Of a stretch of DNA of 64,000 nt, positions 8,205-33,720 are shown in pieces (position 1 is the first letter of the stretch; each line of letters starts with the position of its first letter). Origin of the DNA: a virus (taxonomy: Duplodnaviria; Caudoviricetes); the IMG/VR virus record IMGVR_UViG_3300042402_002579, positions 1,937-65,936 of that record; one strand, 5' to 3'. The position numbers and the translations under genes were made by a program. The notes beneath the pieces were generated by a model. That model did not search any database. It was not told the origin of the DNA and worked only from the letters and a program-made list of their open reading frames with translations.

Positions 8205-9764
8205 ATGCCTTTACAAATTCGCAGAGGAACCACCGCAGAAAGAATAACCATCAGGCCTGTCGTTGGTGAGCTAATCTACGACACAGATATCAAATCTGTA
8301 TACGTTGGCGATAGTACTGACGGCGGCGTCACCGGAACATTAGGTGGAGTAGGAATTACAGTATTTGGCGTTGAACAGGCACAAGACGCTGCGGCAGCTG
8401 CTCTTGCAGCTGGAACTCATAGCGGTATCAGTTTCACCTATGACGATGTTCTTAACAAAATAGATGCAGTAGTAGGTGGCGGCACTGTTAATCTGGATAT
8501 AAAAGGATCAGTTTTTAGCGATGACACTTCGGTTATACTGATTGACGGTGTGTTAGCTGCAATAAATCTAGATCAAACTATAAAAAGCAATGTCATACCT
8601 GCTGTTGACGTTACCTACGATCTAGGATCAGCCAGTAAAAGATTTAGAGATCTTTATCTAAGCGGCTCCAGTATTAAACTAGGCAATGCCACAATTACAG
8701 CTACAGGAACTGCTGTCAATTTACCCTTAGGATCTACTATAGGTGGATCTATAATCAGTTCAGGTGATGGCGTTATTAACGGATCTAATTACAATGTCAA
8801 CATAATAGGCGATGACAGTAGCGTTATTGTCAATACCAGTAATAACGAAGTCACTGGAACATTTACTGGCGACATTACCGGTTCCGTTTTTATGTCCGAT
8901 AGTTCCGTGATAGTAGATTCCGTTGACGGAGTAGTTTATGCTACCACAATTGGACCTCACTACGGAAATGTATTTGGAAATGTGATCGGAGCCACCCAGG
9001 GTTTACATACCGGTAATGTAATCGGTAACGTAGTTGGCGATATCACTGGAACATTAACAGGCAATCTAGTTGGTTCTATGTTTGGTTCTGTATTCAACGA
9101 AAGTAGTTCTATTATGGTTGATACAGACAATGATAGAATTATAGCTTCACAAGTTATAACTCCAACAATAAGAAGCAGCACTAATGCATTGACCTTTAAC
9201 TCTTCAGATACTACTACTGGATTGGAAGTAAATTTTTATGTAAGCCCTCTTAGTATGGATCTCTGGGGAATATCCAATGGTCCTCAGCAGGGCCCGGCGA
9301 TTCAATTCAAAGCAAGTAGAGGTACATTTGCTGCTCCAACTGCCCTTCAATCACTAGACCTAATAGGCGGAACACTAAGTTTTGGACATAACGGCACTGA
9401 CTATAAATTAGCCAGTATAGTTGGTTCTTTCGTTGATCCTAACGGTTCTCTTACTGCGGGTGTGGTTCCGACTAAGATTTCTCTAACAACCTTCCCAACC
9501 AACGATCCGCTAAATCCAAAAAATCTAACGATGAATAGAAACGGGTATGTTTCTATTGGTTATGCCATTACCGATGATGCCGCTGCACATCTTGATATTA
9601 ATGGTGCAATGAAATTAGCCCCATTGAGCACTGCACCAACTAGCCCAGTTTCAGGTATGTTAGCAGTTGCAGACGGAACTGGTTGGAACCCAACTTCGAC
9701 AGGTAAACATACACTGGTTTGCTATCTAACTTCTGCCTGGGTTCAGGTTGCTGTAGCACCTTAA
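8205..9764 (+). CDS. virion fibre-like structural protein
   Basis: Mtd_N-like start (LQIRRGT...GELIYDTD...VGD), GSVFxDDS and GNVxG repeats, YDLGSxxxRxxDLYL module; TAAATA at 8166 plus AGGAG SD. Confidence 0.75.
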   Translation: MPLQIRRGTTAERITIRPVVGELIYDTDIKSVYVGDSTDGGVTGTLGGVGITVFGVEQAQDAAAAALAAGTHSGISFTYDDVLNKIDAVVGGGTVNLDIKGSVFSDDTSVILIDGVLAAINLDQTIKSNVIPAVDVTYDLGSASKRFRDLYLSGSSIKLGNATITATGTAVNLPLGSTIGGSIISSGDGVINGSNYNVNIIGDDSSVIVNTSNNEVTGTFTGDITGSVFMSDSSVIVDSVDGVVYATTIGPHYGNVFGNVIGATQGLHTGNVIGNVVGDITGTLTGNLVGSMFGSVFNESSSIMVDTDNDRIIASQVITPTIRSSTNALTFNSSDTTTGLEVNFYVSPLSMDLWGISNGPQQGPAIQFKASRGTFAAPTALQSLDLIGGTLSFGHNGTDYKLASIVGSFVDPNGSLTAGVVPTKISLTTFPTNDPLNPKNLTMNRNGYVSIGYAITDDAAAHLDINGAMKLAPLSTAPTSPVSGMLAVADGTGWNPTSTGKHTLVCYLTSAWVQVAVAP

Positions 9765-10447
9765 ATTGTAGTAAGTACTCGATCAATAAACTCTGCAGGA
9801 TAGCTGTTTCTAAAACTATTCCAGCAGAGTTTTTCCATAAGCGGCAACGGATGCGGATCGTTCCAACTTATTCCTAATTCTTCTACATACTTCTTCATCT
9901 CTCCCTGCCTAGTGCTGTATATGTGACTGGCATGATCTGCTATACTGATTGGCCCTTCGTGTTTAGCGTATGTGAAAAAGTAATTGATACTTTTAAGTTT
10001 GCCGTCTACTACAAAGTAACTGCTAGGATGCATACTGTACTTGTATAACCCTAACGAATGATGTGCTTTTATAATTGCTAACATTTGCTCCTGCCAATCT
10101 GGAAGTACATCGTTGTAATTTTCTTGATTGCACCCAGCTTGTTCCCAAAAATCAGGTCCATTAACTTCTAAATAAATTTTTTGTTTTTCTAAATCTATAT
10201 TCTTTATTACTGGAACTAGATTCGGATACCTATTTCTCATTTGGGTAAGATAGTTTACTTCACGTAACCATTTTTCCTGCATAAGCTCAGGGGCGACTAT
10301 TTGATTTTGTCCCTTATGATAATTGCCCTCTGTTGTGTAGTGTTGTACAAACACTTTTTTATCAGCACTCATCAAACTGGTGTAAATAAGATTGTTCCGA
10401 CACAGACCGTGTCCTGGAACATTGTTATAATAGTATTCGTACTCCAT
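9761..10447 (-). CDS. protein-kinase-like fold protein with degenerate catalytic motifs
   Basis: WLREVNYL...LVPVIKNID...IYLE...GLYKYSMHPSSYFVVDGKLKSINYF pattern; start re-assigned to MEYEY. Confidence 0.5.
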   Translation of the reverse strand: MEYEYYYNNVPGHGLCRNNLIYTSLMSADKKVFVQHYTTEGNYHKGQNQIVAPELMQEKWLREVNYLTQMRNRYPNLVPVIKNIDLEKQKIYLEVNGPDFWEQAGCNQENYNDVLPDWQEQMLAIIKAHHSLGLYKYSMHPSSYFVVDGKLKSINYFFTYAKHEGPISIADHASHIYSTRQGEMKKYVEELGISWNDPHPLPLMEKLCWNSFRNSYPAEFIDRVLTTI

Positions 10448-10477
10448 ACAATTAATTATCAAAGATCTCATACAATA

Positions 10478-11524
10478 ATGATATATCCGAATAACATTTT
10501 TTCAGTACAGTTAGACCTAACCGATAAGTGTCAGGCCGCCTGCCCAATGTGCCCGAGAAATGATCATGGGGGTATAGATATGCCTTACATTAAAAATATT
10601 GAGATGACTTTAGAAAATGTTAAACAATGGTTGACTTCAGAATGGATTAATACCATTAATTGTTTTTATGCTTGCGGAAACTATGGTGATCCCTTGATGG
10701 CAAAAGATTGTCTAGCAATTTTTGAACATCTTATGACTTATAGCAAATCAGATTGCCGATTCAAAATATACACTAATGGTAGTCTTAGATCAAACGATTT
10801 TTGGATTAAAGCTGCAAATTTGTTTAACACTAATAATTCCATCATATTTGCAATTGATGGTTTTAAAGGAGAACATGAACTTTATAGAAAAAATACCAAC
10901 TGGGATAAAATTATTTCAAATGCAAAAATTTTTATAGAGCATGGAGGAAATGCTGAGGCAGATGTATTATTATTCAAACATAATGAAGACAGAATTTATG
11001 AATTAAAGTCTTTCTTATTAAGTATAGGTTTTAGTAAAGTAAACATTAAATACACAGAAAGATTTCTTGACAAGGAAAAATTTCCAGTAAAAAATAAATC
11101 CGGAGACATTGAGTATTATCTAGAGCCACCAACTTCTCAAAAAATAATTAAACACGATGTTACTATTTTTAAAAATCTAACTGATATAATACAAAATTTT
11201 GATATAGTTCCTATGTGTCACGAAGAACTTTATATCAACGCAAACGGTGATGTTTTTCCTTGCTGTGCAGTTTCGACATGGTTAGATCATTCAGTTAATA
11301 CCAATCCTGTCACGTTTGACGAGTTTACAAATTTACATCAGTTTGAGTCTGCCAATCTTGTTATCAAAGACATCGGATACATTAATCTCAAAAATACAGA
11401 TATAGCAACAGAATTGGCAAAGTCAAATTGGGAAAACATAACAAATCATCATACCACTGGCAATAAAAGTTTAGTGTGTGCATCAAATTGTAGTCCGGGT
11501 TTTTTTGATAATTTTAAAAGCTAG
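10478..11524 (+). CDS. radical SAM protein with C-terminal SPASM/twitch domain
   Basis: CQAACPMC, GNYGDP, TNGS, FAIDG, YINANGDVFPCC, C-terminal CxxxC; start re-assigned to MIYPN. Confidence 0.9.
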   Translation: MIYPNNIFSVQLDLTDKCQAACPMCPRNDHGGIDMPYIKNIEMTLENVKQWLTSEWINTINCFYACGNYGDPLMAKDCLAIFEHLMTYSKSDCRFKIYTNGSLRSNDFWIKAANLFNTNNSIIFAIDGFKGEHELYRKNTNWDKIISNAKIFIEHGGNAEADVLLFKHNEDRIYELKSFLLSIGFSKVNIKYTERFLDKEKFPVKNKSGDIEYYLEPPTSQKIIKHDVTIFKNLTDIIQNFDIVPMCHEELYINANGDVFPCCAVSTWLDHSVNTNPVTFDEFTNLHQFESANLVIKDIGYINLKNTDIATELAKSNWENITNHHTTGNKSLVCASNCSPGFFDNFKS

Positions 11525-11546
11525 TGTATAAGGTTTAAATACTGTT

Positions 11547-12350
11547 ATGATAATTGGCATAAACAACGTTCCATATTATGATATGGAACAATATTTAGAC
11601 ATGGCAGCATTTGAAAAAATGCAACCTGAGATCTTACAAGGGTTTTCACTATCACGAGATTGTGCCAAAGAAGGTACCTGGATGACTCCGGGTTTTACCT
11701 TTGAACAAATGAGTTACATTCCCCATTGGAAACCTATATACCAAGCAATGCAAGAATTTATGTCGATGCCAGCTACTGATCCTATTAAAGCAGCAGGTCT
11801 TGAACTAATGCCTAAAGACTTCAAAGACTTTAAACAACGTAACTTGTTTACTCGATACATTAAAATGGCTATGGGTGCCTATGATCCATACATTTATTAT
11901 TACCTATGGGAAGAAGGTTCCTGGGATGATCGTACTGCTCCACGCAAGCTGACTCCGGAAGCAGAATATTTTCCCACAGTAGTTAAGTGGGTTGAAAGTC
12001 TAGTAGGTACAGTGTTCAAAGACATCGGCCGTGTCATATTCTTCCATTGTGAAGCAGATGGTATTCCATTCGAACATCGAGACCTAGATGCTAAGAACGG
12101 AATGAATCAGTCATTCCCCCATCGAAATGAATTTATACACATCCGTCCTAATACTAAAAAAGCATTTTACATTTGGGATCCTGAAAAGAAAAACAAAGTG
12201 TATCTTAACACAAGAGCAGCCTGGTGGAATGATCAAGATTGGCACGGCGGCGAAAGAATTATGGAACAAAGTTATAGCCTTAGAATTGACGGAAAGTTTA
12301 CAGAAGAGTTTCGTAAAAAATTAGGAATTGAACACATTGAAACCTATTGA
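11547..12350 (+). CDS. Fe/2OG-type (AspH-like) oxygenase
   Basis: EHRD...DWHG...SLRIDG facial-triad pattern. Confidence 0.65.
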   Translation: MIIGINNVPYYDMEQYLDMAAFEKMQPEILQGFSLSRDCAKEGTWMTPGFTFEQMSYIPHWKPIYQAMQEFMSMPATDPIKAAGLELMPKDFKDFKQRNLFTRYIKMAMGAYDPYIYYYLWEEGSWDDRTAPRKLTPEAEYFPTVVKWVESLVGTVFKDIGRVIFFHCEADGIPFEHRDLDAKNGMNQSFPHRNEFIHIRPNTKKAFYIWDPEKKNKVYLNTRAAWWNDQDWHGGERIMEQSYSLRIDGKFTEEFRKKLGIEHIETY

Positions 12351-12963
12351 AGAGTTATATCATAAATTACAAGTATATGCAGATTTAGAAGAGGCCCGCG
12401 AATACTATACTATTATCAAAACAAACTTTGCAGATCAACGCTGGAGTGTTTACAAACATGCAGAACGTCTTACTAAAGAAGCATGGTACGGATTTGAAGA
12501 TGTAGATTACGCTGTTGCTCCCGGCGGTTGGGCATTGCAAACACATCTAGAAACTGACGATGTTTGTGCTCCGTGGATTGTTGATACATATAATCCAGTA
12601 CACCGAGCCCATAATCCAATGATATTTGGTTTTGCTGAAAAATTATTAAAGAAAATTCCAATAGCCAAGTGGTTAAGCATTAGCGAAACTCCGGCCGGAG
12701 GAGGCATTGTATCTCATCAAGATAGTCATTGGCACATACACTTGCCATTGTATAGTCCAGAGAAAAGTTTCCTTACATGGGATAATGAAAATAAAGAACC
12801 CGTGCATTGGAAACATTTTCCATCAGACGGCAGTATCTATGCCTGGAATACAACTGAACAACATACTGTGCTTAACAAGAGTGATGATCTAAGAGTGCAT
12901 TTATTTTTTAAAGTAGAAATTAAAGATGTTCCAGAGCTGTTAAAAATTTCAGGAAAAATATGA
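12328..12963 (+). CDS. aspartyl/asparaginyl beta-hydroxylase-like oxygenase
   Basis: SHQD..WHIHLPL...NTTEQHTVLN...RVHL. Confidence 0.75.
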   Translation: MNTLKPIEELYHKLQVYADLEEAREYYTIIKTNFADQRWSVYKHAERLTKEAWYGFEDVDYAVAPGGWALQTHLETDDVCAPWIVDTYNPVHRAHNPMIFGFAEKLLKKIPIAKWLSISETPAGGGIVSHQDSHWHIHLPLYSPEKSFLTWDNENKEPVHWKHFPSDGSIYAWNTTEQHTVLNKSDDLRVHLFFKVEIKDVPELLKISGKI

Positions 12964-13736
12964 GCAACCCACCTCCAGTGATGTATAAGGATCAACCAGG
13001 TTTTGATTATTGTCTAGAAGTTTTCAAGGCCTGGAATGAGCATCAAAGTCTAGACTTTGACACAGCACGTATATCCATGATGCGTAATAATCATAATACA
13101 ACTACAGCAGAAGACTTTCTTAGTAACAAAGAGTTTAAAGAATTAATAGGCTACATAGTAGACAATCCAACATGGCACCTGTTCTGGGAAGGCGGCAGCG
13201 CATTAGCAAACGTCAATCCAGAGTTTCCTAACTACGATAAGATAATGGCACTTACTGTAGATAAGATTAAAGCTAAACGTGGAGACTTTCTAATTGACAA
13301 TATGTTTATTAGACGTGCTGTTAATAGTTTGCCGTTGCACACAGATCATGTTTACAACTGGCCAGACAGGGTACCTTCATTTACTTACGTTATTCCATTA
13401 GCAGTAGAACGTAACGGTTCATTTAGTGATGATTGGAGTGGAGTCAGTACTGTGATGTTCGAACAATATCAATATCGCAGAGCCTACGGCGCAGACGTAT
13501 TTGATGTAGAATTAAAAACAGGCGATCCGTTCCCTCAAGAAGATTATGCCAATGTTAGTCAGCACACAAGTGAAGAATTATTTGGTCTTAGTTTAGAAAC
13601 AGTATTCCCTTGGAAACAAGGATCTATGATTACTATGGACGCTTATAGATTGCATTGCAGTAATAATTGGAGTCAATATGGCATCGATGCTAAATGGGGG
13701 TTAATTATTCAAAGTGCCAAGTTATTAAACACGTAA
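12960..13736 (+). CDS. 2OG-Fe(II) oxygenase-like protein
   Basis: LPLHTD...VIPL...WKQGS...RLHCS...K. Confidence 0.65.
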   Translation: MSNPPPVMYKDQPGFDYCLEVFKAWNEHQSLDFDTARISMMRNNHNTTTAEDFLSNKEFKELIGYIVDNPTWHLFWEGGSALANVNPEFPNYDKIMALTVDKIKAKRGDFLIDNMFIRRAVNSLPLHTDHVYNWPDRVPSFTYVIPLAVERNGSFSDDWSGVSTVMFEQYQYRRAYGADVFDVELKTGDPFPQEDYANVSQHTSEELFGLSLETVFPWKQGSMITMDAYRLHCSNNWSQYGIDAKWGLIIQSAKLLNT

Positions 13737-14461
13737 TGAGCAAAATTTTCTTGAGCTATTTTATCAAAATGGCCAAATGGTTGACGCTTATAGTTTCTAT
13801 CTAGACAAAATTGGTAATACGACCCGTAGCCTTGATTTTGGTCATTGTCAATTTTTAAAATTTTTTTACCAACTATATCTAACATATTTTTGTAGTTTGA
13901 TGATATTAGATTGTTTGAACCTAAAATTTGTATATATTCACTAGCATAATTTTTACACACACTGTCTACATAAAACATTTGATTTAAAATTTTCTCATTA
14001 TTATTATTTTCAATTTGTAAAAATTCTTCAACATATATATTGTTAATAGGCAATTGATTTTTAAATCTTGAATCTTGATACCATTGCATTCCTAATTGAA
14101 GATATAAATCCTTATCTCTTGCAAACACAAAAGAATCTTTAGGGTAATAGATTTCTGTTCTATCAGAGTGTGTCCAACCAAAAATTACAAGACTATTGGG
14201 GTGTTCTAATAATTTATTTGGAAGTAGTCTTAAACTTCGGTCGTTACTGCCACCACTCATTGCAAAATTGTAAACGGGGATATTTAATAATTTACCTAGA
14301 ACTGAAGAAAATGCATATTCTTTGTATATGTTATCAATTTCTTCAATTGATATTTGAGAAAGATAGTATTGATCAATTAATTTGTCAACTCCTGGAATTG
14401 ATTCAGCCCCGGCAAAATGACTATCACCAAACACTATTATTGAACTAATTTTTTTGGTCAT
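13709..14461 (-). CDS. SGNH/GDSL-like protein
   Basis: VFGDSHFAG, NFAMSGGSN, WT...R, FGHF; start coupled (ATGA) to the upstream stop. Confidence 0.6.
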   Translation of the reverse strand: MTKKISSIIVFGDSHFAGAESIPGVDKLIDQYYLSQISIEEIDNIYKEYAFSSVLGKLLNIPVYNFAMSGGSNDRSLRLLPNKLLEHPNSLVIFGWTHSDRTEIYYPKDSFVFARDKDLYLQLGMQWYQDSRFKNQLPINNIYVEEFLQIENNNNEKILNQMFYVDSVCKNYASEYIQILGSNNLISSNYKNMLDIVGKKILKIDNDQNQGYGSYYQFCLDRNYKRQPFGHFDKIAQENFAHYVFNNLAL

Positions 14462-14997
14462 TGAGATCCCCAATAGTTAAACATATATTTGTCAGTTAAT
14501 CCACCGTTCATTCCACAGTGCCAGTCATCATATGTCGGCCACTGATAAACTGAACCACGAGCAGGACGATACACAGCACTTTCCCCCACAATACTAATGT
14601 GTCCGTGTTGCGGTTCTTGTATATAACAAGTATACCGCACCAAGTTCCCCTGCTTTCTAAATTCATCAATATTCTGGTGCGCATCATAATGCCAAGGAGC
14701 CATACGGCCTGGACGTATTTTACTAATCCAGGCCATTAGTGGTGTTGCTTGTACAATGTTTTGAAATGTATCAATAACATCTTTACCAAAATCTTCTTTA
14801 AAATAATTGGTCCACTCGATCATAGAATCGTTATGTGAGTATCCTGCCTGTTGCCACATTTTATCTAATGTTGCAAACTCTGGAGTGTTAGGGAAACACC
14901 CGTAGTTATACTGCATAGTGACACCGTTACAAGACTTGCACTTGTCAACTACTACATCCCAGTCGATTAGATTGCCTGTATTAGTTATTAAGTTCAT
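14458..14997 (-). CDS. 2OG-Fe(II) oxygenase-like protein
   Basis: PGRMAPWHYD...WHCGMN...K. Confidence 0.7.
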   Translation of the reverse strand: MNLITNTGNLIDWDVVVDKCKSCNGVTMQYNYGCFPNTPEFATLDKMWQQAGYSHNDSMIEWTNYFKEDFGKDVIDTFQNIVQATPLMAWISKIRPGRMAPWHYDAHQNIDEFRKQGNLVRYTCYIQEPQHGHISIVGESAVYRPARGSVYQWPTYDDWHCGMNGGLTDKYMFNYWGSQ

Positions 14998-15484
14998 AAT
15001 TAAATTTTTTTGTTTTCCGTAATATACTGTTAAAAACTATCACAGGTAACTTGTGAGTAAATGCTATACTTAATATGTTCCATCCATGTGGTTTGTGTTC
15101 ATAGTGTTTTATCCTTGTTCCAGGACGCACCCACCACGGAGTATAGTCGTCGTGATAATTTTCATCACTGCGTTCAGGACTTGGTTGTTGGTGCGGAGAA
15201 TGAAATGCCTGTTGCCCAATAACTGGGCAACCTATTTCTTTATAAATTTTTAAGTTAATTACGTAACATTGAGTATGCAATTCGTAATAGGCATTTATGT
15301 TTTCTCTATCTAATATATGTCCCATAATAAAAAAATTATGTTTACTAATTTCTTCAACAAATTTATCTCTATCTAAAAACTCGTGACCTTTTCGGTATAC
15401 TATAGCATAGTCGTATTCTTCCACAACTAATTGTAGCTGACTATCTTCGGTTGAGTCGTTAACTAAAATGTCAATTGTCTTCAT
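14981..15484 (-). CDS. hypothetical protein
   Basis: 167-aa ORF within the operon; GHILDR...YYELH.QCYVINL; HDDYTP. Confidence 0.7.
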   Translation of the reverse strand: MKTIDILVNDSTEDSQLQLVVEEYDYAIVYRKGHEFLDRDKFVEEISKHNFFIMGHILDRENINAYYELHTQCYVINLKIYKEIGCPVIGQQAFHSPHQQPSPERSDENYHDDYTPWWVRPGTRIKHYEHKPHGWNILSIAFTHKLPVIVFNSILRKTKKFNYELNN

Positions 15485-16553
15485 GCCAGGTAGGTAATTT
15501 TAGTTGAGTATTGACATTAAATTCGTTAATGTGTCCTGCAAATTTTGAATCTTGATAATATATAGCTGCTGCTCTAGAAATAAACCCAACATGACAATTA
15601 TAATCTTTTAGCTCAGTTAATATGCGTTGTTCTGCACGTATTCGAGATTGCAAACTATAGAAACAACTAGTTAGGTAGTAACTAAAGATGTTGCTAAAAT
15701 TAATGAATGTATTTGGTACAGGTTTAACTAATTCTGTAATATCTAATTTTTCTAACAAGTTGATGTGAACAAATTCAAAACGTACGGTATTAACAATCTT
15801 AATCCAATTGTCTGGCTCAACTACAGAATACATACTGGCAAATCCGTAATCCCATTCTTTATCAATAAATTTAAACTTGCTTCGGCCTAGACGTCTAATA
15901 AATTCTTCATAATCACCGCCATTGTATTTTAACACAACTTCTCGCATACAGTCCAATGCTAGGTAACTATAATCGTAAAATCTAACAACGGTAGTTTCGT
16001 CATACCCGTATTTGTTCAAGTAGTTAACCCAATTAAGTCCTGCTGCTGGAGTTACCAGTTGATGGATAATCGGCAAATCTAGCGTTTGCACTTGTTCATT
16101 ATTAACCGGATAAAAAAACGAACCATGCCCAAGACTAAATTTTTTGTTTTGCCATTCTAGTCCCTGTTCAAATGAATCTTCAGATCGACCGTCCAAATAA
16201 AATATATTTTGAGCCAACTCTATCTTATCTGCTTTATGTAAAACAATATCACCTACTAGATCTCTTAAGTTTATTATTTGAAAATGATCAGTTGGTTCAA
16301 TAACAACCACTCCGGCATCTAACACATCAATACCAGTCGGTACTATTATTGCCGTTTTAAAAAATGCACGAGCAAATTCTAACATTTCGTTTAGATTTTT
16401 ACTTGCTATAACAAAATATTTTTCACTAAACTTAAATAGAGTCTGATCACTAACGTTCTTAACCAGCTGCCTTGCAGAAGGAATACACTGATCTATTTCA
16501 TCTAATATACAAACTACTACATCACTGTCTGTTTGGTTTCCGTACTGTATCAA
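15471..16553 (-). CDS. hypothetical protein
   Basis: 360-aa ORF; PAAGL...FYDYS..AL...SNIF, possibly a Rossmann-like C-terminal domain. Confidence 0.7.
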   Translation of the reverse strand: MIQYGNQTDSDVVVCILDEIDQCIPSARQLVKNVSDQTLFKFSEKYFVIASKNLNEMLEFARAFFKTAIIVPTGIDVLDAGVVVIEPTDHFQIINLRDLVGDIVLHKADKIELAQNIFYLDGRSEDSFEQGLEWQNKKFSLGHGSFFYPVNNEQVQTLDLPIIHQLVTPAAGLNWVNYLNKYGYDETTVVRFYDYSYLALDCMREVVLKYNGGDYEEFIRRLGRSKFKFIDKEWDYGFASMYSVVEPDNWIKIVNTVRFEFVHINLLEKLDITELVKPVPNTFINFSNIFSYYLTSCFYSLQSRIRAEQRILTELKDYNCHVGFISRAAAIYYQDSKFAGHINEFNVNTQLKLPTWHEDN

Positions 16554-17188: not shown

Positions 17189-17192
17189 AAGA

Positions 17193-17211
17193 TATTTATA
17201 GCGAGTAAATA
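17193..17211. promoter_or_regulatory. divergent pair of T4-late-like promoters
   Basis: TATAAATA on the minus strand (17193-17200) and TAAATA on the plus strand (17206-17211), each 4 nt from a start codon. Confidence 0.65.
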
Positions 17212-17215
17212 CTCA

Positions 17216-21600: not shown

Positions 21601-21639
21601 AGAAATATTTAACTAAGTATTCAACGAGGAATAAATTTT

Positions 21640-23886: not shown

Positions 23887-23924
23887 ATAGTAATTATGTA
23901 AATATTCCACTAGGGAGATAGTTT

Positions 23925-25905: not shown

Positions 25906-26778
25906 CGGAATGTCTGCTGCACAAGTACACCAATCTCTAGTACACTCAATAGACTGCTGCGGTACTGAAAAAGTATCTTGATAGATATTGCCAAGACTAC
26001 CACCGACTCTGCAAGTGGCTCTGTGTACATCTCCGTCCCAGTTGATCATTAGACTTTCTATACCTGCGTTACACTGCCAACCTTTAAATTGATTTAGGTG
26101 TTGTTTAATTACATCGTTGGCATGAATAATTTGTTCGTCGTCTATACGACAATTTGGTGTAACTGTGGCATCTTTGTTTAGAATCCATTCTAAATCTCTA
26201 CCTTCATACTTTAAATCGTCAAATACATTATGGTCGCCTTCGGTCCAACGTATTCTACGAATTGCATATTTGATGCCAAGCTCGTCAAACTTTTTAACAA
26301 CTGTTTTTACGTTATGCATATGTTTGTGATGTGCCATAACATTCACAAAGAAATCTCGATCAGTCTCATCGTAAAATTTCATAATGGTATCAAATATTCT
26401 AGTCCACTCTTGTTCAAAGTGTAGACTAAAAACAAGATGATTAAAAAACATTTCATTTTGTAAATACCATCTATATCCTCTAGTTCCGTTAGTTGTTAGA
26501 TTAACCCAGAATATATCTTTGCGTTTAAAATATTCTAATAGAGATTCTATATCTGGATGTATACAAGGTTCGCCTCCTGTAAGACTGATACGTAAAGGCT
26601 TGCCTATTTCGCAGAGACGATCCACTGCTCTTTCTAGAATGTTTATATCGGTATGAGGACTAAAATTATCGTGTATAGCACTAGGGCAATAGGTACAGTC
26701 GTAATTACATCGTTTACCCAAGTTCCATTCTATTTTAAGTTGATCTTGATGCGGCCAAACGCTGGTTACTTTATACAT
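25861..26778 (-). CDS. radical SAM protein with twitch domain
   Basis: CNYDCTYC, GGEP, TNG, WQCNAG...C...C.CAAD. Confidence 0.9.
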   Translation of the reverse strand: MYKVTSVWPHQDQLKIEWNLGKRCNYDCTYCPSAIHDNFSPHTDINILERAVDRLCEIGKPLRISLTGGEPCIHPDIESLLEYFKRKDIFWVNLTTNGTRGYRWYLQNEMFFNHLVFSLHFEQEWTRIFDTIMKFYDETDRDFFVNVMAHHKHMHNVKTVVKKFDELGIKYAIRRIRWTEGDHNVFDDLKYEGRDLEWILNKDATVTPNCRIDDEQIIHANDVIKQHLNQFKGWQCNAGIESLMINWDGDVHRATCRVGGSLGNIYQDTFSVPQQSIECTRDWCTCAADIPLTKINPDQVNNPSH

Positions 26779-28036
26779 ATTTTTTAAATTCCGGAGTTAC
26801 TGCTGTAAAACTCTGTGTTCTAGTTGAATCTAGTCTTCTATTGAACTCAACACAATCTTCCCAACGATGGCTTTGATCTCTAGCGGTAAGATAGTTTATG
26901 TTATCTTGTATTTGATCCAGTGTATATTTTAACAACTGAGGATATTGCTTTACCAGTTTAAAATTTGGAACTTGAGATTTTATATTTTCTAATCTTTCTA
27001 GAGCAAGATCTAACAAAGGTCTAGGCAACACTTGAGCAGACAATTCTCGAGGAAATTCAACTCTATGAGAATGGAACACGATACCTAAGTCATTTAAAAA
27101 ATATTCAATAATTTTATCTAATACTAACACATTGCTAACCTGCACAGTGACAGCTCCAACAATTCGACTGATATTAGGTATAGACTGTATCTGTTTAATG
27201 TTGTTTATCAGTTCGAGCCAACTAGCATTACCGCGAATATATTCGTAACTGCTGTCAATGCCATCAATACTTACATTAACAGCAACACTTTTAAACTTAG
27301 GCCAATACTCCCAAACTGTACGATTGCTCTTTCCTAACATACTCAAGTTGGTTGCATATTTAATTTCTATATTAGAACCATAGGGAGCAAGCATATCTAA
27401 TATGCGATAATGCTGCGGGTCCATCAATGGCTCACCGCCAGCAAATTCTACACGACGAAAGTAAGGTAACAATTTTTCTAAACTGGACCACCACTCAGGA
27501 TTATCTTGAAACTTATCAAGAAAAGGTTTATTCTTTAAATTATTTTCTTCAACTAAATGAAATATAATGTTGTTGTCTTTTTTATAAAATTCTTCCACTT
27601 GATCCCAATCGTTCCAACTGGTGCTGTCTCCGGGATGACACATACGACATTTTAAGTTACAGAGATTATTAAGTTTGAGTTCGATTGTGGGAATTTCAAA
27701 AGGCATAGAATAGTCTTCTTGTAGTTTATTCAATGCGTCGGGGTATAGATTTATTCTTGCTTCTGGAATTCTGGCTTCAACGTGTCGCTGTCGTAGACTG
27801 ACCACTCCTTGATCTTCGAGATTAAAACAAGGTTCACACTCTGCAGGTCTTTCGTCATTTAATACCTGCTTACGAATACGCTTCATCGTGTCGTTATTCC
27901 AAATTTCTTCTAGAGATTCTTTATCAACAAAGCCAACTGGATGACTACGACAACAGGCCTTAATGGCACCATCTTCTCTGGTAGCTAACCCTGTAAAAGG
28001 GTGCATACAAAATGTTTTACTTTTTTTAAGGACCAT
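26771..28036 (-). CDS. radical SAM protein with N-terminal twitch-like domain
   Basis: FCMHPF...ACC...CEPC, CNLKCRMC, GGEP, SIDG. Confidence 0.9.
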   Translation of the reverse strand: MVLKKSKTFCMHPFTGLATREDGAIKACCRSHPVGFVDKESLEEIWNNDTMKRIRKQVLNDERPAECEPCFNLEDQGVVSLRQRHVEARIPEARINLYPDALNKLQEDYSMPFEIPTIELKLNNLCNLKCRMCHPGDSTSWNDWDQVEEFYKKDNNIIFHLVEENNLKNKPFLDKFQDNPEWWSSLEKLLPYFRRVEFAGGEPLMDPQHYRILDMLAPYGSNIEIKYATNLSMLGKSNRTVWEYWPKFKSVAVNVSIDGIDSSYEYIRGNASWLELINNIKQIQSIPNISRIVGAVTVQVSNVLVLDKIIEYFLNDLGIVFHSHRVEFPRELSAQVLPRPLLDLALERLENIKSQVPNFKLVKQYPQLLKYTLDQIQDNINYLTARDQSHRWEDCVEFNRRLDSTRTQSFTAVTPEFKKYV

Positions 28037-28040
28037 GAAA

Positions 28041-28070
28041 TATTTAACCTATAAAGTGTACATATAAATA
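28041..28070. promoter_or_regulatory. divergent pair of T4-late-like promoters
   Basis: TAAATA on the minus strand (28041-28046) and TATAAATA on the plus strand (28063-28070), each 4 nt from an ATG. Confidence 0.65.
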
Positions 28071-28074
28071 TTTC

Positions 28075-29499
28075 ATGCCCAACAAAAACAAAATATTCTG
28101 GCTGCAATCAGAAGAAACTCAGCTAGGAAAATGGCAGAAGCAAATAGTCGACGTATCCGGAAGCCCTAGTTTTTGTGTACTACCTTGGATCCATATGGCT
28201 ACTCGTCCAAACGGAGATATGCGAGTATGTTGTGTGGCCAATGCTAGCGGAGCAAGTGACGGCGACTACACAGTTGGTCTTGTTAAGAAAGAAAACGGAC
28301 AACCTGCTAACTTTGGAAAAGATCTTCCTAGCCAGGCATTTAATAATGATTATATGCGTAGCATTAGACAAACCATGCTGGAAGGAAAAGCTCCGGCAAG
28401 TTGTAAGAAATGTTACGAAGAAGAAAGCTCAGGTGTAGTTAGTAAGCGCATTTGGGAAACTGGTACATGGGATAAAAAAGGCATTGACATACCTGCACTC
28501 ATTGCGCAAACAACTGAAGAAGGGCATATTCCTTACAAATTACAATACATAGATTTACGTCTAGGACACACTTGCAATTTAAAATGTATAATGTGCAGTC
28601 CTCATGACAGTAGTAAGTGGGTTGAGGATCATAAAAAAGTATATCCACTATTTCAAAGTCCGCTAATTAAAAAACAATTAAGCTGGAAACAGAATAGTTT
28701 TAACAATCATTGGCACGAAAACCCAGCGTTCTGGGAAGAGATCTACGAACAAATTCCCAACATCAAACAGGTATATTTTGCTGGTGGCGAACCACTGATG
28801 ATTAAAGAGCATAAGATATTCCTACAGGAAATTATAAATCGAGGTTATGCTAACAAAATAGAACTTCGTTATAACAGCAATGGAATTTTGATTGACGAAA
28901 CTATCGTCGAAATATGGAAACAGTTTCGCAAAGTCAAATACGGACTCAGCATAGACGGAATGGGCGACAGATTGCATTACATTCGCTTTCCAACTGATTG
29001 GAATACCATTGTGAAAAATTTGCACATACTAGATAATGCTCCGGATAATATTGAAACTACTATTGCCTGTGCTGTACAGATATTGAATATCAAGCACATT
29101 CCAGACTTTATCAAATGGAAGCTGACTCAGGGATTTAAGAAGATCAATCTGAATGAAAACATTGTTGGCGAAACACATAGTGGGGGCATATTCAGCGCAC
29201 ACCTAGTATGGATTCCAACCTGGCTAAGTTTAAAGGTATTGCCCAAAGAAGATAAAAAAGAAGTACGAAGACTGTTTGAAGAATTAAAAATATGGCTGTG
29301 GGAAAATCACACTCAAGACGCTGACTTTTGGGAAGTGAACTCTTATGGTTGGAAACGCTGGGAAGGACTTTTAAATTGGATGGACAGTGAGGATCACACT
29401 AATTTACTACCTGACTTCCAAGAATATATTACAACAATGGACACACAACGTAAGACAGACTTTAAACAGACGTTTCCTGAATTAGCTCATTTGCTTTAA
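28075..29499 (+). CDS. radical SAM protein with N-terminal twitch-like domain
   Basis: FCVLPW...VCC...CKKC, CNLKCIMC, GGEP, SIDG. Confidence 0.9.
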   Translation: MPNKNKIFWLQSEETQLGKWQKQIVDVSGSPSFCVLPWIHMATRPNGDMRVCCVANASGASDGDYTVGLVKKENGQPANFGKDLPSQAFNNDYMRSIRQTMLEGKAPASCKKCYEEESSGVVSKRIWETGTWDKKGIDIPALIAQTTEEGHIPYKLQYIDLRLGHTCNLKCIMCSPHDSSKWVEDHKKVYPLFQSPLIKKQLSWKQNSFNNHWHENPAFWEEIYEQIPNIKQVYFAGGEPLMIKEHKIFLQEIINRGYANKIELRYNSNGILIDETIVEIWKQFRKVKYGLSIDGMGDRLHYIRFPTDWNTIVKNLHILDNAPDNIETTIACAVQILNIKHIPDFIKWKLTQGFKKINLNENIVGETHSGGIFSAHLVWIPTWLSLKVLPKEDKKEVRRLFEELKIWLWENHTQDADFWEVNSYGWKRWEGLLNWMDSEDHTNLLPDFQEYITTMDTQRKTDFKQTFPELAHLL

Positions 29500-30205
29500 G
29501 AGCCCACTCTCGTTCTTTACACCAAAAACATTCATTACAAACAGGAACATATTGTCCTTGTTTGTAGTTTTGATAATTTATTTCAGTGAACTTTCCCTCA
29601 CAACTTCTTGTAATGTTAAACAGGTCGATAAGATTTAACTCCACATAAGTTTTTACTATCTCGGATTTGTCAACAAATCTAAAAGGATGAAATGCCCAAC
29701 GCCCCATATGTTGCATTGCTTCGAGATGTCCGTTGTTTTCATTCTTTTCAATACTGCGTTCAAGCATACCGTTAAAATTTTCTACTCGAGGATTTCGGGT
29801 CACTCCGTTGTAGTAGGCATCGATGTTGTGTTTATTGCAGATAAATTCTGCATAAGCCCGTTGTTGTATGTTGTCACCACTTACTAGTTTACCGTATTCA
29901 TCTGTTAAACAAGGACCAATATTTCCGTATTCTAGTTCCGGTGCAATAAAGTTTATATGTCTCTCAAATGTAATATTTGAAAATTTCTTAGTCATCCAAT
30001 TATAGATTCTTTCAGAATCGTACTGTTGCCAAGGTTTGGTTTTCCAGCATCTTATGTGACTGATAACGTGAATCTTGATGTGTTCTGCTTTTTGAATCGT
30101 AATGTTATTACATAACAAATAACAAAGCAATGCGCTATCAGCACCACCACTCATACTAATAGCGACACTGTTCCATTTTGCATCAAAGGGTATATTTAGA
30201 CTCAT
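29462..30205 (-). CDS. QueC-like PP-loop ATPase
   Basis: SMSGGADS PP-loop, HPF..DK, TRSC, CNECFWCKER Zn motif; start probably MSLNI. Confidence 0.75.
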   Translation of the reverse strand: MSLNIPFDAKWNSVAISMSGGADSALLCYLLCNNITIQKAEHIKIHVISHIRCWKTKPWQQYDSERIYNWMTKKFSNITFERHINFIAPELEYGNIGPCLTDEYGKLVSGDNIQQRAYAEFICNKHNIDAYYNGVTRNPRVENFNGMLERSIEKNENNGHLEAMQHMGRWAFHPFRFVDKSEIVKTYVELNLIDLFNITRSCEGKFTEINYQNYKQGQYVPVCNECFWCKEREWALKANELIQETSV

Positions 30206-30216
30206 AAATATATTTA
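30205..30216. promoter_or_regulatory. interlocked divergent TAAATA promoters
   Basis: CAT-AAATATATTTA-ATG contains TAAATA on both strands between two start codons. Confidence 0.6.
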
Positions 30217-30897
30217 ATGTTAAAACTTTTGCCAAATAAATTTTCTATAGAACCCATAATAGATCAAGTTTCTTTGCTGGGTTCTTTTAAAAGGTTAGAT
30301 CTCAACGATTCCACGGGAGAGTTTTTTAATGATCCGTGGGAAGTAAAACCAGAATTTAAAAGAACACCCCTAGGTGATGTTCTCGATTCTTTAGGAGCTA
30401 TCGGTCAGGCAAGATTGCTGTGTTTAGAATCAAGAGAAACTTATACTGCTCATTGCGATCCAGATGACAGAATCCATCTTGCAATAGTTACCAATCCTTA
30501 CTCATTCTTAGTTAATATATCTGATAATCAAATGTATCATTTACCAGCAGACGGACAACTATGGCATATGAATACTGACTTTGTCCATGTTGCTGTAAAC
30601 TGGGGCCCAAGAACACGTATTCATTTAAATGTAAGAGTGCTATTACCTAAATATACTGACAAACAAAAAGGACTACGCATAAAGGTAGTTAGCGGAGACT
30701 ACGATTGGAAACAGTTAGCATATACTCCAATTATGGGCACTGTTAACAAGTATATTAAGAACGGTTATATTACTGGCTTCAAAGGAATCAGTGAAAAAGA
30801 AATACTCGTAAATACTGATTTTCCGTCAATATTCGACGAAGCATTCATTCAGATTAAAAATGCCGGGATTACTTTAGAGATCGTACAGTTGACTTGA
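30217..30897 (+). CDS. AspH-like Fe/2OG oxygenase with C-terminal extension
   Basis: ARLL...HCDPDDRIHL...HVAVNWG...RIHL. Confidence 0.75.
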   Translation: MLKLLPNKFSIEPIIDQVSLLGSFKRLDLNDSTGEFFNDPWEVKPEFKRTPLGDVLDSLGAIGQARLLCLESRETYTAHCDPDDRIHLAIVTNPYSFLVNISDNQMYHLPADGQLWHMNTDFVHVAVNWGPRTRIHLNVRVLLPKYTDKQKGLRIKVVSGDYDWKQLAYTPIMGTVNKYIKNGYITGFKGISEKEILVNTDFPSIFDEAFIQIKNAGITLEIVQLT

Positions 30898-31923
30898 ACA
30901 AGATTTAACACAGGTCATACACTTGTTCTCACCTTGCCAATAACTTTCTAACTCTTTCCATAGTCCATCTTGCCCTAACATTTCTTCAATGTTGTTAATG
31001 TGCAAATTGGGCACTCCGATAGCTTGCATCATTTCCTTAGAATTATTTACTGTTATGTTGCGTAGTGTATGCAACAATAGTTTTTCTTCTAACGGTTGTT
31101 CTAACCAGTCACTACCAATGTAACAACAAGGCAACACATTGCCGTGAGGATCAACATAAATTTCTTGTTTAGTTACACATTGCGGTTTAATAATTGATTC
31201 CGATACTATTTTTTTAAAAAATTTATTATCTAAAAAATTCTCTAAGGGTATTTTTACTTCTTGTTTAAAACGTGAAGTTTCTGCAGGATATAAATCATAT
31301 TCGTATTCATCTGATCGATCGAATACAGGAAATGCTGTCATATTGTAAAAGCGTTTAGTGCTTTTGAAGTTTACACTATGTACACCAATATCCAGTAAAA
31401 ACTTTTCTAGTTCATCCACTTCGTGTTCATTATGTTTAAACACTAAACTGTCTACCCTAGCAAGCCCGCCCGCACTAACATAGGCTTTGATATTTTCTAT
31501 GATCTTATCAAAGTCTGTATTGCGTCTGTATAATTCGTGTTTTCCTTTGAATCCATCTACAGCAAAAACAACTTCTCCATTCTTTCCCATCACAGTGGCA
31601 AGGTCCTTCCACCAAGTAGTTTTACGCAAACTACCATTGGTGTGAATTGCTAATCGTGCATTGGGACTTGAATTTCGAACGTGTTCGTATATGTCAAAAC
31701 AGTCTGTAGCAAATACAGGATCTCCATAATTACCACAACTGTAAAAATTATTTACACCTGATAAAAAAGAAACAGGGAACCATTGTTTAAAGTTTGCAAA
31801 TGTGATCTCTGTATTTTTAATAAAGGGACGTTCACTCCCACCGCTATGATTACGAGCACACATAGGACAGGCGGCCTGGCATTTATCAGTTAACTCAATA
31901 TGTATAGCAGAGATAGGATACAT
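30874..31923 (-). CDS. radical SAM protein with SPASM/twitch domain (close paralogue of 10478..11524)
   Basis: LTDKCQAACPMC, CGNYGDP, DGFKGKHELYR, FKHNE, LPCC. Confidence 0.9.
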   Translation of the reverse strand: MYPISAIHIELTDKCQAACPMCARNHSGGSERPFIKNTEITFANFKQWFPVSFLSGVNNFYSCGNYGDPVFATDCFDIYEHVRNSSPNARLAIHTNGSLRKTTWWKDLATVMGKNGEVVFAVDGFKGKHELYRRNTDFDKIIENIKAYVSAGGLARVDSLVFKHNEHEVDELEKFLLDIGVHSVNFKSTKRFYNMTAFPVFDRSDEYEYDLYPAETSRFKQEVKIPLENFLDNKFFKKIVSESIIKPQCVTKQEIYVDPHGNVLPCCYIGSDWLEQPLEEKLLLHTLRNITVNNSKEMMQAIGVPNLHINNIEEMLGQDGLWKELESYWQGENKCMTCVKSCSSQLYDL

Positions 31924-32516
31924 TATTTTTTACCAATAATCATAAATCTTTTATACAAAGGTAAATCTAATTCTCCAGCATAGCATATCTTTTCTAACTG
32001 AGATTGAGATTTAAATTCTTCTAAATCTTGAGCAATTCTTATGTGTTCTGGTATCTGGTAGTTGTTAGATTGTAAAACAATTAGACTATCCATTCTAAGA
32101 CCTCCTAGCCATAGATCATAATCGTCTTGAGATACGTGTTCAAAACTGGTGTTAATCACAACGTCTGCGTCGGACCTAATACTACACATATCAGCAGTTA
32201 CGGCACAGAATCGACCTGCTATTTCTTCTATCTTGTTCATATTAACAGCAATAGACTCGCAGCTAGAATCAATATCGACACTACGAATGTTTATTATAGG
32301 TAGGTCACTTTGAAATAGCATACTAGCTAACACTCCTACCCACCCACCGTGAATGTCTATGGTAACAAACTTGTTGACATTATTGCGTAGATTTGTAATC
32401 AGCCACTCTTTGCTTTTAAGTTGGCCACTCCAAAATGCATCCATAGTACGCATAGGATCAGGACTTTGACGGATGGCCTGCATCCAGTGGTGTAGGTGTT
32501 CGGTATCTATTTGCAT
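31923..32516 (-). CDS. class I SAM-dependent methyltransferase-like protein
   Basis: IHGGWVG, SVDID, ADM, INTSFEH; start probably MQIDT. Confidence 0.7.
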   Translation of the reverse strand: MQIDTEHLHHWMQAIRQSPDPMRTMDAFWSGQLKSKEWLITNLRNNVNKFVTIDIHGGWVGVLASMLFQSDLPIINIRSVDIDSSCESIAVNMNKIEEIAGRFCAVTADMCSIRSDADVVINTSFEHVSQDDYDLWLGGLRMDSLIVLQSNNYQIPEHIRIAQDLEEFKSQSQLEKICYAGELDLPLYKRFMIIGKK

Positions 32517-33481
32517 TTTGGTATTTTGCTGTCTGCCGAACTCACGCAACTAGGAGTAATACAGCGAGTAGGTTCCTTGAATAATTCAAAGCTGTCTAAT
32601 GTGCCTAATGGAACATCGTGACAACTGTAACTGCGTTTGACTTCATTGCCTCTTATTATAACACTTTGATATCCAGCATTGCAAGACCAGTTAGTGAATT
32701 TATTGAAACCAAATGCATTAAATCTTTCAGCCTGATCAAATAAGTGTTCAGTACCGTCTGCTTCGTACAGAGCAATTTGATAAGCATCTTCACCGTTAGC
32801 ACGTTGCGGAAATCCCGTCTGCATCTTGTTTATCATATCTTCAGTATAGCCCGCAACAACTGCACTCGCCGTTGGATTGCTTTGCGGCTTCAATGTAACA
32901 TTAATGCCTCGTTCGTGGAAACGTTCCATTCGGTCATACAGTTCATAAAACTTTTCTGGCACCATTACTTGATTGATTGTAACGTGTACCAGTTCATATT
33001 GTAACTGTAGGCACTTATCGCCAAACTCTTGTTCCTTGGCAAACTCGTCGTGGAAACTGGCAGTAATACTCCTACGCTGTAATAATGCAGTATTGGCACA
33101 CCAAGTGTTCCACCATTTGCTACCTGGACTCAGATTGGTTGTCATATGAATACTTTGGTAAGGACTTTCGGTTTCGTCCAGGTGTTTTATTAATTCTGGT
33201 AACTGTTTGTATGCAGTAGGTTCACCGCCGCTGAACGACCAATGGAACTGGTTAAATCCGTTGGCTCGTGCTTGACGCTTAATTTCGTTTACTGTAGATT
33301 TATATACTTCAAGTGATTGGTGATCCAATTTGTCACTGCGAGCATAAGGCCAACAGTAGCTACAATTATAATTACAAAATCTGCCTAGAATCCAACTGGT
33401 AGAAAATAATGGATTGGCTAGCATAGTACGTTGTCCAAAACGCACAATGTGTTCGAATGGAATTGATTTAAAATTTTGCAT
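32507..33481 (-). CDS. radical SAM protein with twitch domain (paralogue of 25861..26778)
   Basis: CNYNCSYC, GGEP, TTN, WSCNAG...C...CVSSAD. Confidence 0.9.
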   Translation of the reverse strand: MQNFKSIPFEHIVRFGQRTMLANPLFSTSWILGRFCNYNCSYCWPYARSDKLDHQSLEVYKSTVNEIKRQARANGFNQFHWSFSGGEPTAYKQLPELIKHLDETESPYQSIHMTTNLSPGSKWWNTWCANTALLQRRSITASFHDEFAKEQEFGDKCLQLQYELVHVTINQVMVPEKFYELYDRMERFHERGINVTLKPQSNPTASAVVAGYTEDMINKMQTGFPQRANGEDAYQIALYEADGTEHLFDQAERFNAFGFNKFTNWSCNAGYQSVIIRGNEVKRSYSCHDVPLGTLDSFELFKEPTRCITPSCVSSADSKIPKCK

Positions 33482-33512
33482 AATAACGGTAAGTATTTAA
33501 CTGCTAGATCAG

Positions 33513-33657: not shown

Positions 33658-33720
33658 GTTTTAAGCACCTGCAAGCAAGGGGGCTTATAAGTATTAGAAC
33701 ATAACTATAAGGAAACAATT

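Follow-up and report, generated by a model that had tools for sequence, protein, structure and literature searches.

The 64-kb window analyzed here, which is the whole stretch under study (positions 1,937 to 65,936 of IMG/VR record IMGVR_UViG_3300042402_002579, a linear viral contig of 65.9 kb), contains at 9761-33481 an island of about 24 kb with approximately 27 tailoring enzymes, ten of which are radical S-adenosylmethionine (rSAM) enzymes. We propose that the island is a toolkit for tailoring sugars or glycolipids, located in a hypervariable tail-fiber region, and we give this reading a probability of about 0.4. A carbohydrate or glycolipid substrate was favored because related genes lie in polysaccharide loci of Bdellovibrionota, the 3-deoxy-D-manno-octulosonate (Kdo)-8-phosphate synthase KdsA is encoded nearby, the accessory enzymes are of fitting types, and no hallmark of ribosomally synthesized and posttranslationally modified peptides (RiPPs) was found. 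Sequence comparison suggests that the core of the island functions as a module and is common to the phage and to bacterial loci, which in the most informative cases would make surface polysaccharide; a ribosomal peptide is a less likely substrate. The initial annotation, made from the DNA letters alone, had proposed a late-expressed pathway decorating virion proteins, a glycan or lipid, or packaged DNA. Its glycan or lipid option gained support from the Bdellovibrionota polysaccharide loci and from KdsA, whereas the virion-protein and DNA options did not.

Radical SAM families and the conserved core

Ten proteins with a CxxxCxxC motif had been listed for the island, in four paralogue families. 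All ten matched PF04055 at 34.2 to 64.6 bits (gathering cut-off, 29.5 bits), each contained the motif exactly once, and an all-against-all blastp search reproduced the four families exactly. Genes are named here by their first coordinate. Family 1 consists of 10478..11524 (plus strand; 35.1 bits; CQAACPMC; a SPASM-like, Cys-rich C terminus), 20530..21600 (minus strand; 36.7 bits; CNAACPQC; TAAATA at -11), and 30874..31923 (minus strand; 34.2 bits); 10478 and 30874 were 39% identical (E = 4e-89), with 20530 at 26 to 28%. The pair 18972..20537 (minus strand; 64.6 bits) and 22387..23910 (minus strand; 46.5 bits) shared 28% identity (E = 2e-38) and scored 19.0 and 23.0 bits, respectively, against the B12-binding domain PF02310, below its cut-off of 32.1 bits. 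The best NCBIfam matches of both were B12 rSAM models, all far below the cut-offs and including lipid, P-, and C-methylase models for 18972; from their sequences, both are probably rSAM enzymes of the B12-binding type, 18972 being a probable class B member. Family 4 comprises 25861..26778 (minus strand; 50.9 bits), which is weakly STM4011-like (NF038073, 52.6 bits, below the cut-off), and 32507..33481 (minus strand; 47.1 bits), with 23% identity between them (E = 8e-13).

The three members of the remaining family, 17775..19031 (plus strand), 26771..28036 (minus strand), and 28075..29499 (plus strand), shared 25 to 27% identity (E = 1e-43 to 4e-50) and were identified as N-terminal-twitch (N-twitch) rSAM enzymes by full-length scores of 282.1, 334.7, and 404.6 bits, respectively, against NCBIfam NF033640 (N_Twi_rSAM; curated cut-off, 170 bits). 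The other seven rSAM enzymes scored 30 to 47 bits or gave no match (22387, 18972, and 25861) and are therefore not members; they matched generic or sub-threshold NCBIfam models only. In an alignment of 14 diverse NF033640 members, C34, C110, and C113 were invariant and C52 nearly so, all upstream of C167, C171, and C174. An N-terminal SPASM match of 35 bits was found in 26771.

With 28075 as the query, 73 related loci (36 to 99% identity) were recovered from viral contigs, and the presence of all island proteins was scored in them by tblastn at a coverage of at least 60%. Many loci are just 5 to 10 kb long, so the counts are lower bounds; paralogues may cross-match, and 28075, the scan query, is in 73 of 73 loci by construction. 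Six to eight genes form a core that occurred in 62 to 73 of the loci, including 31923 (68 loci), 26771 (67), 25861 (64), 32507 (62), and 30874 (62). Intermediate counts were obtained for 9761 (38), 14458 (36), 11547 (30), 29462 (28), 30217 (28), and 17216 (25), and low counts for 22387 (17), 18972 (17), 25129 (10), 24515 (7), 21640 (3), and 23925 (1), while 12960, 13709, and 15471 were each absent from all 73 loci. Gene order and orientation were shuffled between relatives. The pairings that persisted were 32507 with 31923 and 30874 (here called the triad), 26771 with 25861 (often with 29462), and 9761 with 11547. The block is no random collection of genes, and the co-occurrence across relatives to which the initial annotation had tied its pathway was borne out.

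Homologues of 28075 fell into 4939 protein clusters (E <= 1e-10), on contigs of up to 371 kb. In marine relatives, a 1412-amino-acid open reading frame (ORF) at L068:8669-12907, also seen in L066, L067, L069, and L072, joins a 14981-like domain with the motif HDDYTP to two N-twitch rSAM domains. When viral contigs were scanned with the B12-type enzyme 18972, four pattern matches were obtained, with no relative among them. The Ralstonia phage RsoM2USA encodes a distant N-twitch homologue, whose surrounding genes are all annotated as hypothetical.

Bdellovibrionota counterparts and sugar-related phage genes

A genome scan with the N-twitch alignment detected relatives in 361 of 600 candidate stretches, and most of the 79 loci that were kept were titled Bdellovibrionota; as the search pattern was narrow, exclusivity to this phylum is not demonstrated by the scan. 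NF033640 was present in 14 of the 81 genomes sampled from the phylum and scored above the cut-off in none of 14 control genomes. Five Bdellovibrionota genomes carried 7 to 16 copies each above the cut-off (51 in total), many of them in tandem runs of 3 to 8. Bdellovibrionota genes were 47 to 49% identical to 28075, the best match to 32507 was 52 to 58% identical in four of the five genomes and 45% in the fifth, and a 31923-like gene was found in all five. In one cluster (L096), genes at 5717-6799 and 6993-8111 were 35% and 50% identical to 30874 and 32507, respectively.

The triad recurs in Bdellovibrio sp. HCB2-146 (L166). There, a 30874-like rSAM gene (35% identity; 5358-6479) is divergent from a run of a 31923-like gene (33%; 6512-7237), a 32507-like rSAM gene (55 to 63%), and a family 2 glycosyltransferase (GT2) gene, and these last three genes have overlapping or abutting ends. 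This triad lies inside a locus of about 40 kb with six interspersed N-twitch rSAM genes and with sugar genes encoding two UDP-glucose/GDP-mannose dehydrogenases, two epimerase/dehydratases, a DegT aminotransferase, further GT2s, and a polysaccharide lyase. Genes for a UDP-glucose dehydrogenase, a GT2, and an AsnB-type amidotransferase lie directly beside an N-twitch array of seven copies in another Bdellovibrionota genome. Neighborhood counts, which were made by hand, placed the 31923-like gene within 10 kb of a GT2 gene at three of eight places, compared with about 0.6 expected by chance, a rough estimate from GT2 counts and genome lengths.

On the phage side, KdsA is encoded 8 kb downstream of the island (41760..42581, plus strand; PF00793, 240.9 bits; PDB 3fs2, 3.3e-100) in a TAAATA-ATG arrangement with the motif at 41749. 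It was found in 4 of 28 related contigs, those sharing this flank. A PF01370 epimerase/dehydratase was present in 10 of the 28, at 3 to 7 kb from the island in the four that were mapped. Glycosyltransferases and nucleotide-sugar enzymes occur together in the Bdellovibrio locus but not in the phage. A PTPS/QueD-family gene (41211-41735; 39.8 bits) precedes KdsA, and a gene for a 262-amino-acid protein with no PDB match follows it (region to 43366). The 235-amino-acid product of 40390-41097 was considered as a GT42/CstII-like protein and rejected, the match being sub-threshold (E = 0.035), with PF06002 fragments at E = 0.06 and, in the G018 orthologue, E = 0.005.

Two further observations concern the bacterial loci. 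The 1.9-Mb genome of a member of the Bdellovibrionales (G003) has 16 NF033640 genes, 15 of them in two tandem arrays (seven and eight genes) and one standing alone; the arrays lie at C1:792852-803016 and 1068646-1092743 (L162-L164), and one is interrupted by what appear by eye to be transposase-like fragments. A Pnkp/Hen1 RNA-repair pair is located at L096:14081-18030, a few kilobases from the rSAM cluster.

Accessory enzymes, upstream motif, and surroundings

The small protein 9761..10471 (minus strand) has a protein kinase fold and looks like RIO, APH, and Kdo/WaaP-like kinases. Its family profile (alignment A3) matched the kinase TTK in the PDB (6.4e-7), and its language-model neighbors in a protein atlas were RIO1/APH/Kdo clusters at 0.96 to 0.97. 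Two kinase-fold proteins had been annotated; the profile supports this one, and the other, 17216..17788 (plus strand; TAAATA at -10), is linked to it as a putative distant paralogue by a blastp match with an E value of 8.8e-4. The middle gene of the triad, 31923..32549 (minus strand), encodes the annotated methyltransferase, with a model of the class I SAM-dependent methyltransferase fold (predicted local distance difference test score [pLDDT], 91.2) and Foldseek matches to PhzM, MtNAS, and RebM at about 1e-9.

Six oxygenases with an HxD...H motif had also been listed. Three of them, 12328..12963 (plus strand; 31.0 bits), 16550..17188 (minus strand; 55.1 bits), and 30217..30897 (plus strand; 24.9 bits), are AspH-like 2-oxoglutarate (2OG) oxygenases by PF05118 (cut-off, 22.6 bits); 16550 heads a five-gene minus-strand run, with TATAAATA at -12. 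For 11547..12350 (plus strand; TAAATA at -11), the fold supported the assignment. Its residues H177, D179, H233, and R246 are invariant, its model (pLDDT, 87.3) is a double-stranded beta-helix of the 2OG-Fe(II) oxygenase type, and Foldseek returned ALKBH5, PHD2, and proline hydroxylases (E of about 3e-5; template modeling score, 0.3 to 0.4), while the sequence had no Pfam, PHROGs, or PDB-profile match. The profile of the 31923 family likewise gave zero matches in the PDB, and thus both structures are predicted. The fifth, 14458..14997 (minus strand), is a small cupin/AspH-like protein with invariant H103, D105, and H160 (alignment A7) and a weak match to the beta-hydroxylase PDB 7v4f (E = 0.064), and in 12960..13736 (plus strand), which had no Pfam or PHROGs match, the motif was seen by eye.

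The annotated desaturase, 25129..25905 (plus strand), is a membrane fatty-acid-desaturase-family di-iron enzyme (PF00487, 69.1 bits), and homologues of its neighbor 24515..25132 (plus strand) stand beside it in the loci displayed. The PP-loop ATP pyrophosphatase-like protein 29462..30235 (minus strand) has an invariant S29-G-G-A-D-S34 and a C-terminal Cys cluster (C212, C233, C236, and C239 invariant), in support of its annotation, but its PF01171 score of 20.9 bits lies below the cut-off; from the sequence context, the gene probably starts at ATG 30205, directly preceded by TAAATA. Matches below the Pfam thresholds were obtained for the short protein annotated as a short-chain dehydrogenase/reductase (SDR), which may be SDR/Rossmann-like (23925..24518, plus strand; RmlD_sub_bind, E = 0.0073; PF01370, E = 7e-4), and for the two annotated SGNH-like proteins, a possibly SGNH/GDSL-like one (13709..14473, minus strand; PF00657, E = 0.0088) and a possibly SGNH-like one (21640..22410, plus strand; DUF6473, E = 0.0015). 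The protein with the invariant HDDYTP, 14981..15484 (minus strand; alignment A8), was considered as a GT-A/GT2 enzyme on the basis of an atlas value of 0.88 and rejected, as hhalign against three GT2 domains gave a probability of 0.13. The 360-amino-acid protein 15471..16553 (minus strand) has 29 homologues, with no Pfam domain in any. A PHROGs search with ten unannotated island proteins returned 0 families.

The island is essentially gap-free, with intergenic gaps of 15 to 40 bp, and is divided into 13 strand runs within its 24 kb. Nine of the 13 strand-run heads have TAAATA in the 40 nt preceding them, in agreement with the annotation that most units are headed by this motif, which also precedes the internal gene 11547. 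Over the window the motif is depleted (53 found, compared with 84 +/- 8 in shuffles, every one of which had at least 53). The arrangement TAAATA-N3-7-ATG occurs 14 times, and 11 to 12 of these sites fall exactly at ORF starts when compared with the ORF lists; they include the alternative ATG at 30205 and, outside the island, ThyX, KdsA, and a tail-fiber gene. Examples are found at 28065-28077, 28034-28046, and 21598-21611. As just 3 to 7 nt separate the motif from the ATG and such heads have no recognizable Shine-Dalgarno sequence, their transcripts may be leaderless; internal genes, in contrast, have AGGA-type sites. The motif is shared between island genes and flanking structural genes. Its designation as a late-type motif found no support here, since genes other than structural ones, ThyX and KdsA among them, also stand behind it.

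The contig was estimated by CheckV to be 19% complete, and thus the genome is probably several hundred kilobases long. The source was lake water, and the phage is most likely an uncultured lake-water myophage of the large type. The stretch 25800-33500 was present, with at least half of the sampled words, in 21 of 24 listed runs, all but one of which were labeled as lake-water or freshwater metagenomes; the listed runs span 24 studies, two of which are possibly the contig's own source, and no RNA run was among those carrying the stretch. On the left, the island abuts a tail-fiber-like protein (8205..9764, plus strand; Mtd_N, 29.1 bits; weak PHROGs tail-spike match). Tail-fiber or virion proteins are encoded at 38.7-40.5 kb, a baseplate-wedge/tail-fiber connector at 55572-58823, and a tail fiber at 59063-63247, so that the island sits inside the structural module. 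ThyX (34434-35099) adjoins the island, and three tRNAs lie at 644-1249. The GC content is 0.34 to 0.38 in the island versus 0.41 to 0.47 in the structural part. Cultured phages are all distant: a megablast search with the island gave zero matches among 50,697 phage records, and a conserved flank protein was at most 30 to 40% identical to proteins of large phages of Pseudomonas, Stenotrophomonas, and Sinorhizobium.

Several features border the island. Left of the tail-fiber gene, the low-GC region 1261-8112 contains further enzyme-like genes, with weak matches to cupin/GPI-like proteins, 2OG-FeII_Oxy_5, and AMP-binding (a 484-amino-acid protein), and a metallophosphoesterase; the tailoring region may extend past its left border at 9761. 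On the right, a tRNA-like 3' half at 33590-33660, made up of a T-arm (GGTTCGAAACC) and, after it, an acceptor-like end, lies between the island and a Lys/Ala-rich 63-amino-acid ORF at 33721-33912 that looks histone-H1-like by eye; ARAGORN and Rfam made no call for the tRNA-like element. The next protein, of 170 amino acids (33915-34427), is rich in Ser, Thr, Asn, and Gly and was found beside the island in 3 of the 73 loci, which are close relatives. A giant ORF of 2513 amino acids at 46319-53860, with TAAATA at -36, is possibly a VrlC-like structural protein of the kind found at the edge of such islands in aquatic T4-like phages.

Proposed substrate of the island and comparison with known systems

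From the families, folds, paralogy, co-occurrence, homology, and gene neighborhoods observed, we infer the substrate, every reaction, and the timing of expression. Candidate substrates would be a nucleotide sugar, a sugar in a glycan or glycolipid of the host envelope (lipopolysaccharide [LPS] or capsule), or a phage-made glycan. The N-twitch, SPASM-like, and family 4 rSAM enzymes would abstract hydrogen from unactivated C-H bonds of a sugar or lipid, with epimerization, oxidation, deoxygenation, or C-C bond formation as possible outcomes, and the two B12-type enzymes could carry out C-methylation. Hydroxylation or desaturation would fall to the 2OG oxygenases and the desaturase-family enzyme, 31923 would methylate, the PP-loop protein could activate a carboxylate for amidation or thiolation, and the small kinases might phosphorylate hydroxyl groups, in the manner of WaaP and KdkA acting on the LPS core. 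Tailoring of a sugar or of lipid A would fit the kinds of accessory proteins present, namely Kdo/WaaP-like kinase look-alikes, the AspH family, SGNH-like and SDR-like proteins, and a desaturase.

Several points weigh against a sugar or glycolipid substrate. The best-known substrates of SPASM/twitch rSAM enzymes and AspH-type oxygenases are peptides and proteins, and a profile search of the PDB with the N-twitch family returned generic matches (SkfB, GDGT synthase, viperin, BlsE, and MoaA). The families of the PP-loop protein, 11547, 9761, and 14458 were each found in none of the five Bdellovibrionota genomes, which leaves half of the phage core without a cellular context. Across these genomes, a GT2 or epimerase gene is present within 10 kb at 4 of 20 N-twitch sites, which hold 24 of the 51 copies; as about two sites would be expected by chance, the enrichment is modest. 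The L096 cluster lies between adk and acyl-CoA genes with no adjoining sugar genes, and an eight-copy N-twitch array is placed among the housekeeping genes tilS, ftsH, and glmM. GT2 was found in none of five phage contigs, GT1 in one of 28 related contigs (about 50 kb from that contig's island), and DegT in one of 28. With about 19% of the genome covered by this contig, the remainder may encode a precursor, glycosyltransferases, or a DNA transferase.

It is conceivable, but rather unlikely, that the enzymes modify a protein or peptide, either a phage structural protein such as an adjoining fiber protein or a RiPP whose precursor is encoded outside the window. The SPASM/twitch enzymes match many peptide-maturase models weakly (StsB, PapB, XyeB, and CefB), AspH-family oxygenases are part of the island, and the combination of rSAM, B12-type rSAM, 2OG oxygenase, and methyltransferase resembles that of proteusin clusters; the position of the island between the tail-fiber-like protein and the Ser/Thr/Asn/Gly-rich protein, and the TAAATA motif common to the island and the structural genes, are also consistent with such a substrate. 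However, every peptide-maturase model scored far below its cut-off, and no PqqD or RiPP recognition element (RRE) domain (PF05402) was found in the ten rSAM enzymes at E <= 0.01. The intergenic gaps leave no space for a free-standing small ORF, which agrees with the earlier statement that the island has no small precursor-peptide ORF, and the sole small ORF nearby encodes the Lys/Ala-rich 63-mer. In the Bdellovibrionota array L162, an 840-bp gap holds transposase-like fragments (by eye), and the informative cellular contexts are sugar genes. The shuffled order and orientation of the genes would instead fit the absence of a single pathway, the island then being a hyperplastic dump of independent auxiliary genes with their own promoters that act on different host metabolites. 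The 13 strand runs, most with their own motif, the sporadic genes (12960, 13709, and 15471 in no locus, 23925 in one, and 21640 in three), the GC content of the island relative to the structural part, and the gradual gain and loss of cassettes described for such islands in the available portion of PMC7029224 argue in the same direction. We consider this explanation unlikely, as the core of six to eight genes recurs in nearly all loci, sub-modules remain adjacent, the triad is kept as a unit in phage and bacterium, and the marine fusion ORF unites a 14981-like domain with two N-twitch domains.

Modification of nucleic acids or nucleotides, yielding hypermodified DNA of the 7-deazaguanine or thymidine type or viperin-like modified nucleotides, appears improbable. 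The C-terminal Cys motif of the PP-loop protein is QueC-like (PF06508, E = 0.0028), the family 4 rSAM enzymes match QueE and viperin models weakly, the PTPS/QueD-family gene lies near KdsA, ThyX stands beside the island, and the 11547 model is as AlkB/ALKBH5-like as it is protein-hydroxylase-like. Against these features, the QueC model scored 17.6 bits (cut-off, 22) and the QueE models 35 to 37 bits (cut-offs above 200), and the cellular homologues had no DNA-modification neighbors in the loci examined. The 7-deazaguanine (preQ0/DpdA) pathway in particular was rejected, with the PTPS gene present, TGT/DpdA in none and FolE in one of 28 related contigs, and the QueC and QueE scores below the cut-offs.

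Tailoring of sugars or glycolipids is thus the reading that we prefer. A broader proposal, which we regard as speculative and rather doubtful, is that large aquatic phages and predatory Bdellovibrionota share an undescribed form of rSAM-based glycan tailoring, in which the rSAM-methyltransferase-rSAM triad and N-twitch arrays would produce hypermodified, possibly Kdo-derived, envelope or virion sugars, with the arrays diversifying surfaces in an arms race between phage and host or predator and prey. Genes for rSAM enzymes are among the commonest unexplained auxiliary genes of large aquatic phages, and the link to chromosomal loci of Bdellovibrio isolates, which are culturable and nonpathogenic, provides a genetic and biochemical entry point. 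If envelope or virion glycans are indeed the substrate, the island would represent a new way of diversifying surfaces, and its radical enzymes a new class that modifies carbohydrates.

Among known systems, RiPP clusters of the proteusin/polytheonamide type combine rSAM, B12-type rSAM, 2OG hydroxylase, and methyltransferase, a palette similar to that of the island. Unlike these clusters, the island has no precursor, RRE, leader peptidase, or transporter, and the maturase models remain below their cut-offs. WaaP/KdkA and LpxO/KdoO carry out LPS core and lipid A tailoring, and KdsA is an enzyme of the Kdo pathway. The island shares with LPS tailoring its Kdo/WaaP-like small kinases, its AspH-family hydroxylases, and the bona fide KdsA nearby. 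The likeness seen is at the level of families, and the WaaP, KdkA, LpxO, and KdoO pathways are not known to use rSAM chemistry.

The kind of region is already known from two studies. In pelagimyophages and cyanomyophages, a hypervariable host recognition cluster (HRC), with VrlC and gp14 as its defining borders, lies in the tail-fiber module, and the pelagimyophage islands combine genes for LPS/O-chain synthesis with glycosyltransferases and with rSAM cassettes that vary (Zaragoza-Solas et al. 2020, PMC7029224; available portion). The present island shares the character of a large nonsyntenic island inside the structural/tail-fiber module of T4-like aquatic myophages, as its flanks and shuffled gene order show. 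It differs in that glycosyltransferases are conspicuous in HRC islands and almost absent here, and in that the freshwater (Fonsibacter) phages of that study lack rSAM and LPS genes, whereas the present phage is from lake water; the available portion of PMC7029224 gives no rSAM families, count, or function. Twelve rSAM genes are mentioned for a marine environmental viral genome of the T4-like type (Nishimura et al. 2017, PMC5332604; available portion), which likewise shares the aquatic T4-like setting and a double-digit rSAM count, a comparison made by description and not by sequence; in that portion the rSAM enzymes are treated as Fe-S cluster consumers beside viral Fe-S assembly genes, with no product or pathway. 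Both studies agree with the initial annotation that similar arrays occur in aquatic phages without a characterized product. Our literature search returned no paper on the function of such rSAM arrays and, among the papers checked, none relevant on Bdellovibrio rSAM enzymes, and the N-twitch assignment, the triad, the Bdellovibrionota link, the KdsA neighbor, and the TAAATA-ATG arrangement did not turn up in the literature searched.

Compared with the phage island, the Bdellovibrionota arrays reach up to 16 copies per genome, and their loci also encode dehydrogenases, epimerases, an aminotransferase, and GT2s, which are missing from the phage. The PP-loop, 2OG-oxygenase, and kinase families, in turn, belong to the phage side, without a counterpart in the five bacterial genomes. 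Shared by both are NF033640, the 32507-like and 30874-like rSAM enzymes, and the 31923-like gene, at 33 to 63% identity, with the triad adjacent in each. The Bdellovibrionota loci thereby point to sugars as the substrate class and to the triad as the minimal module.

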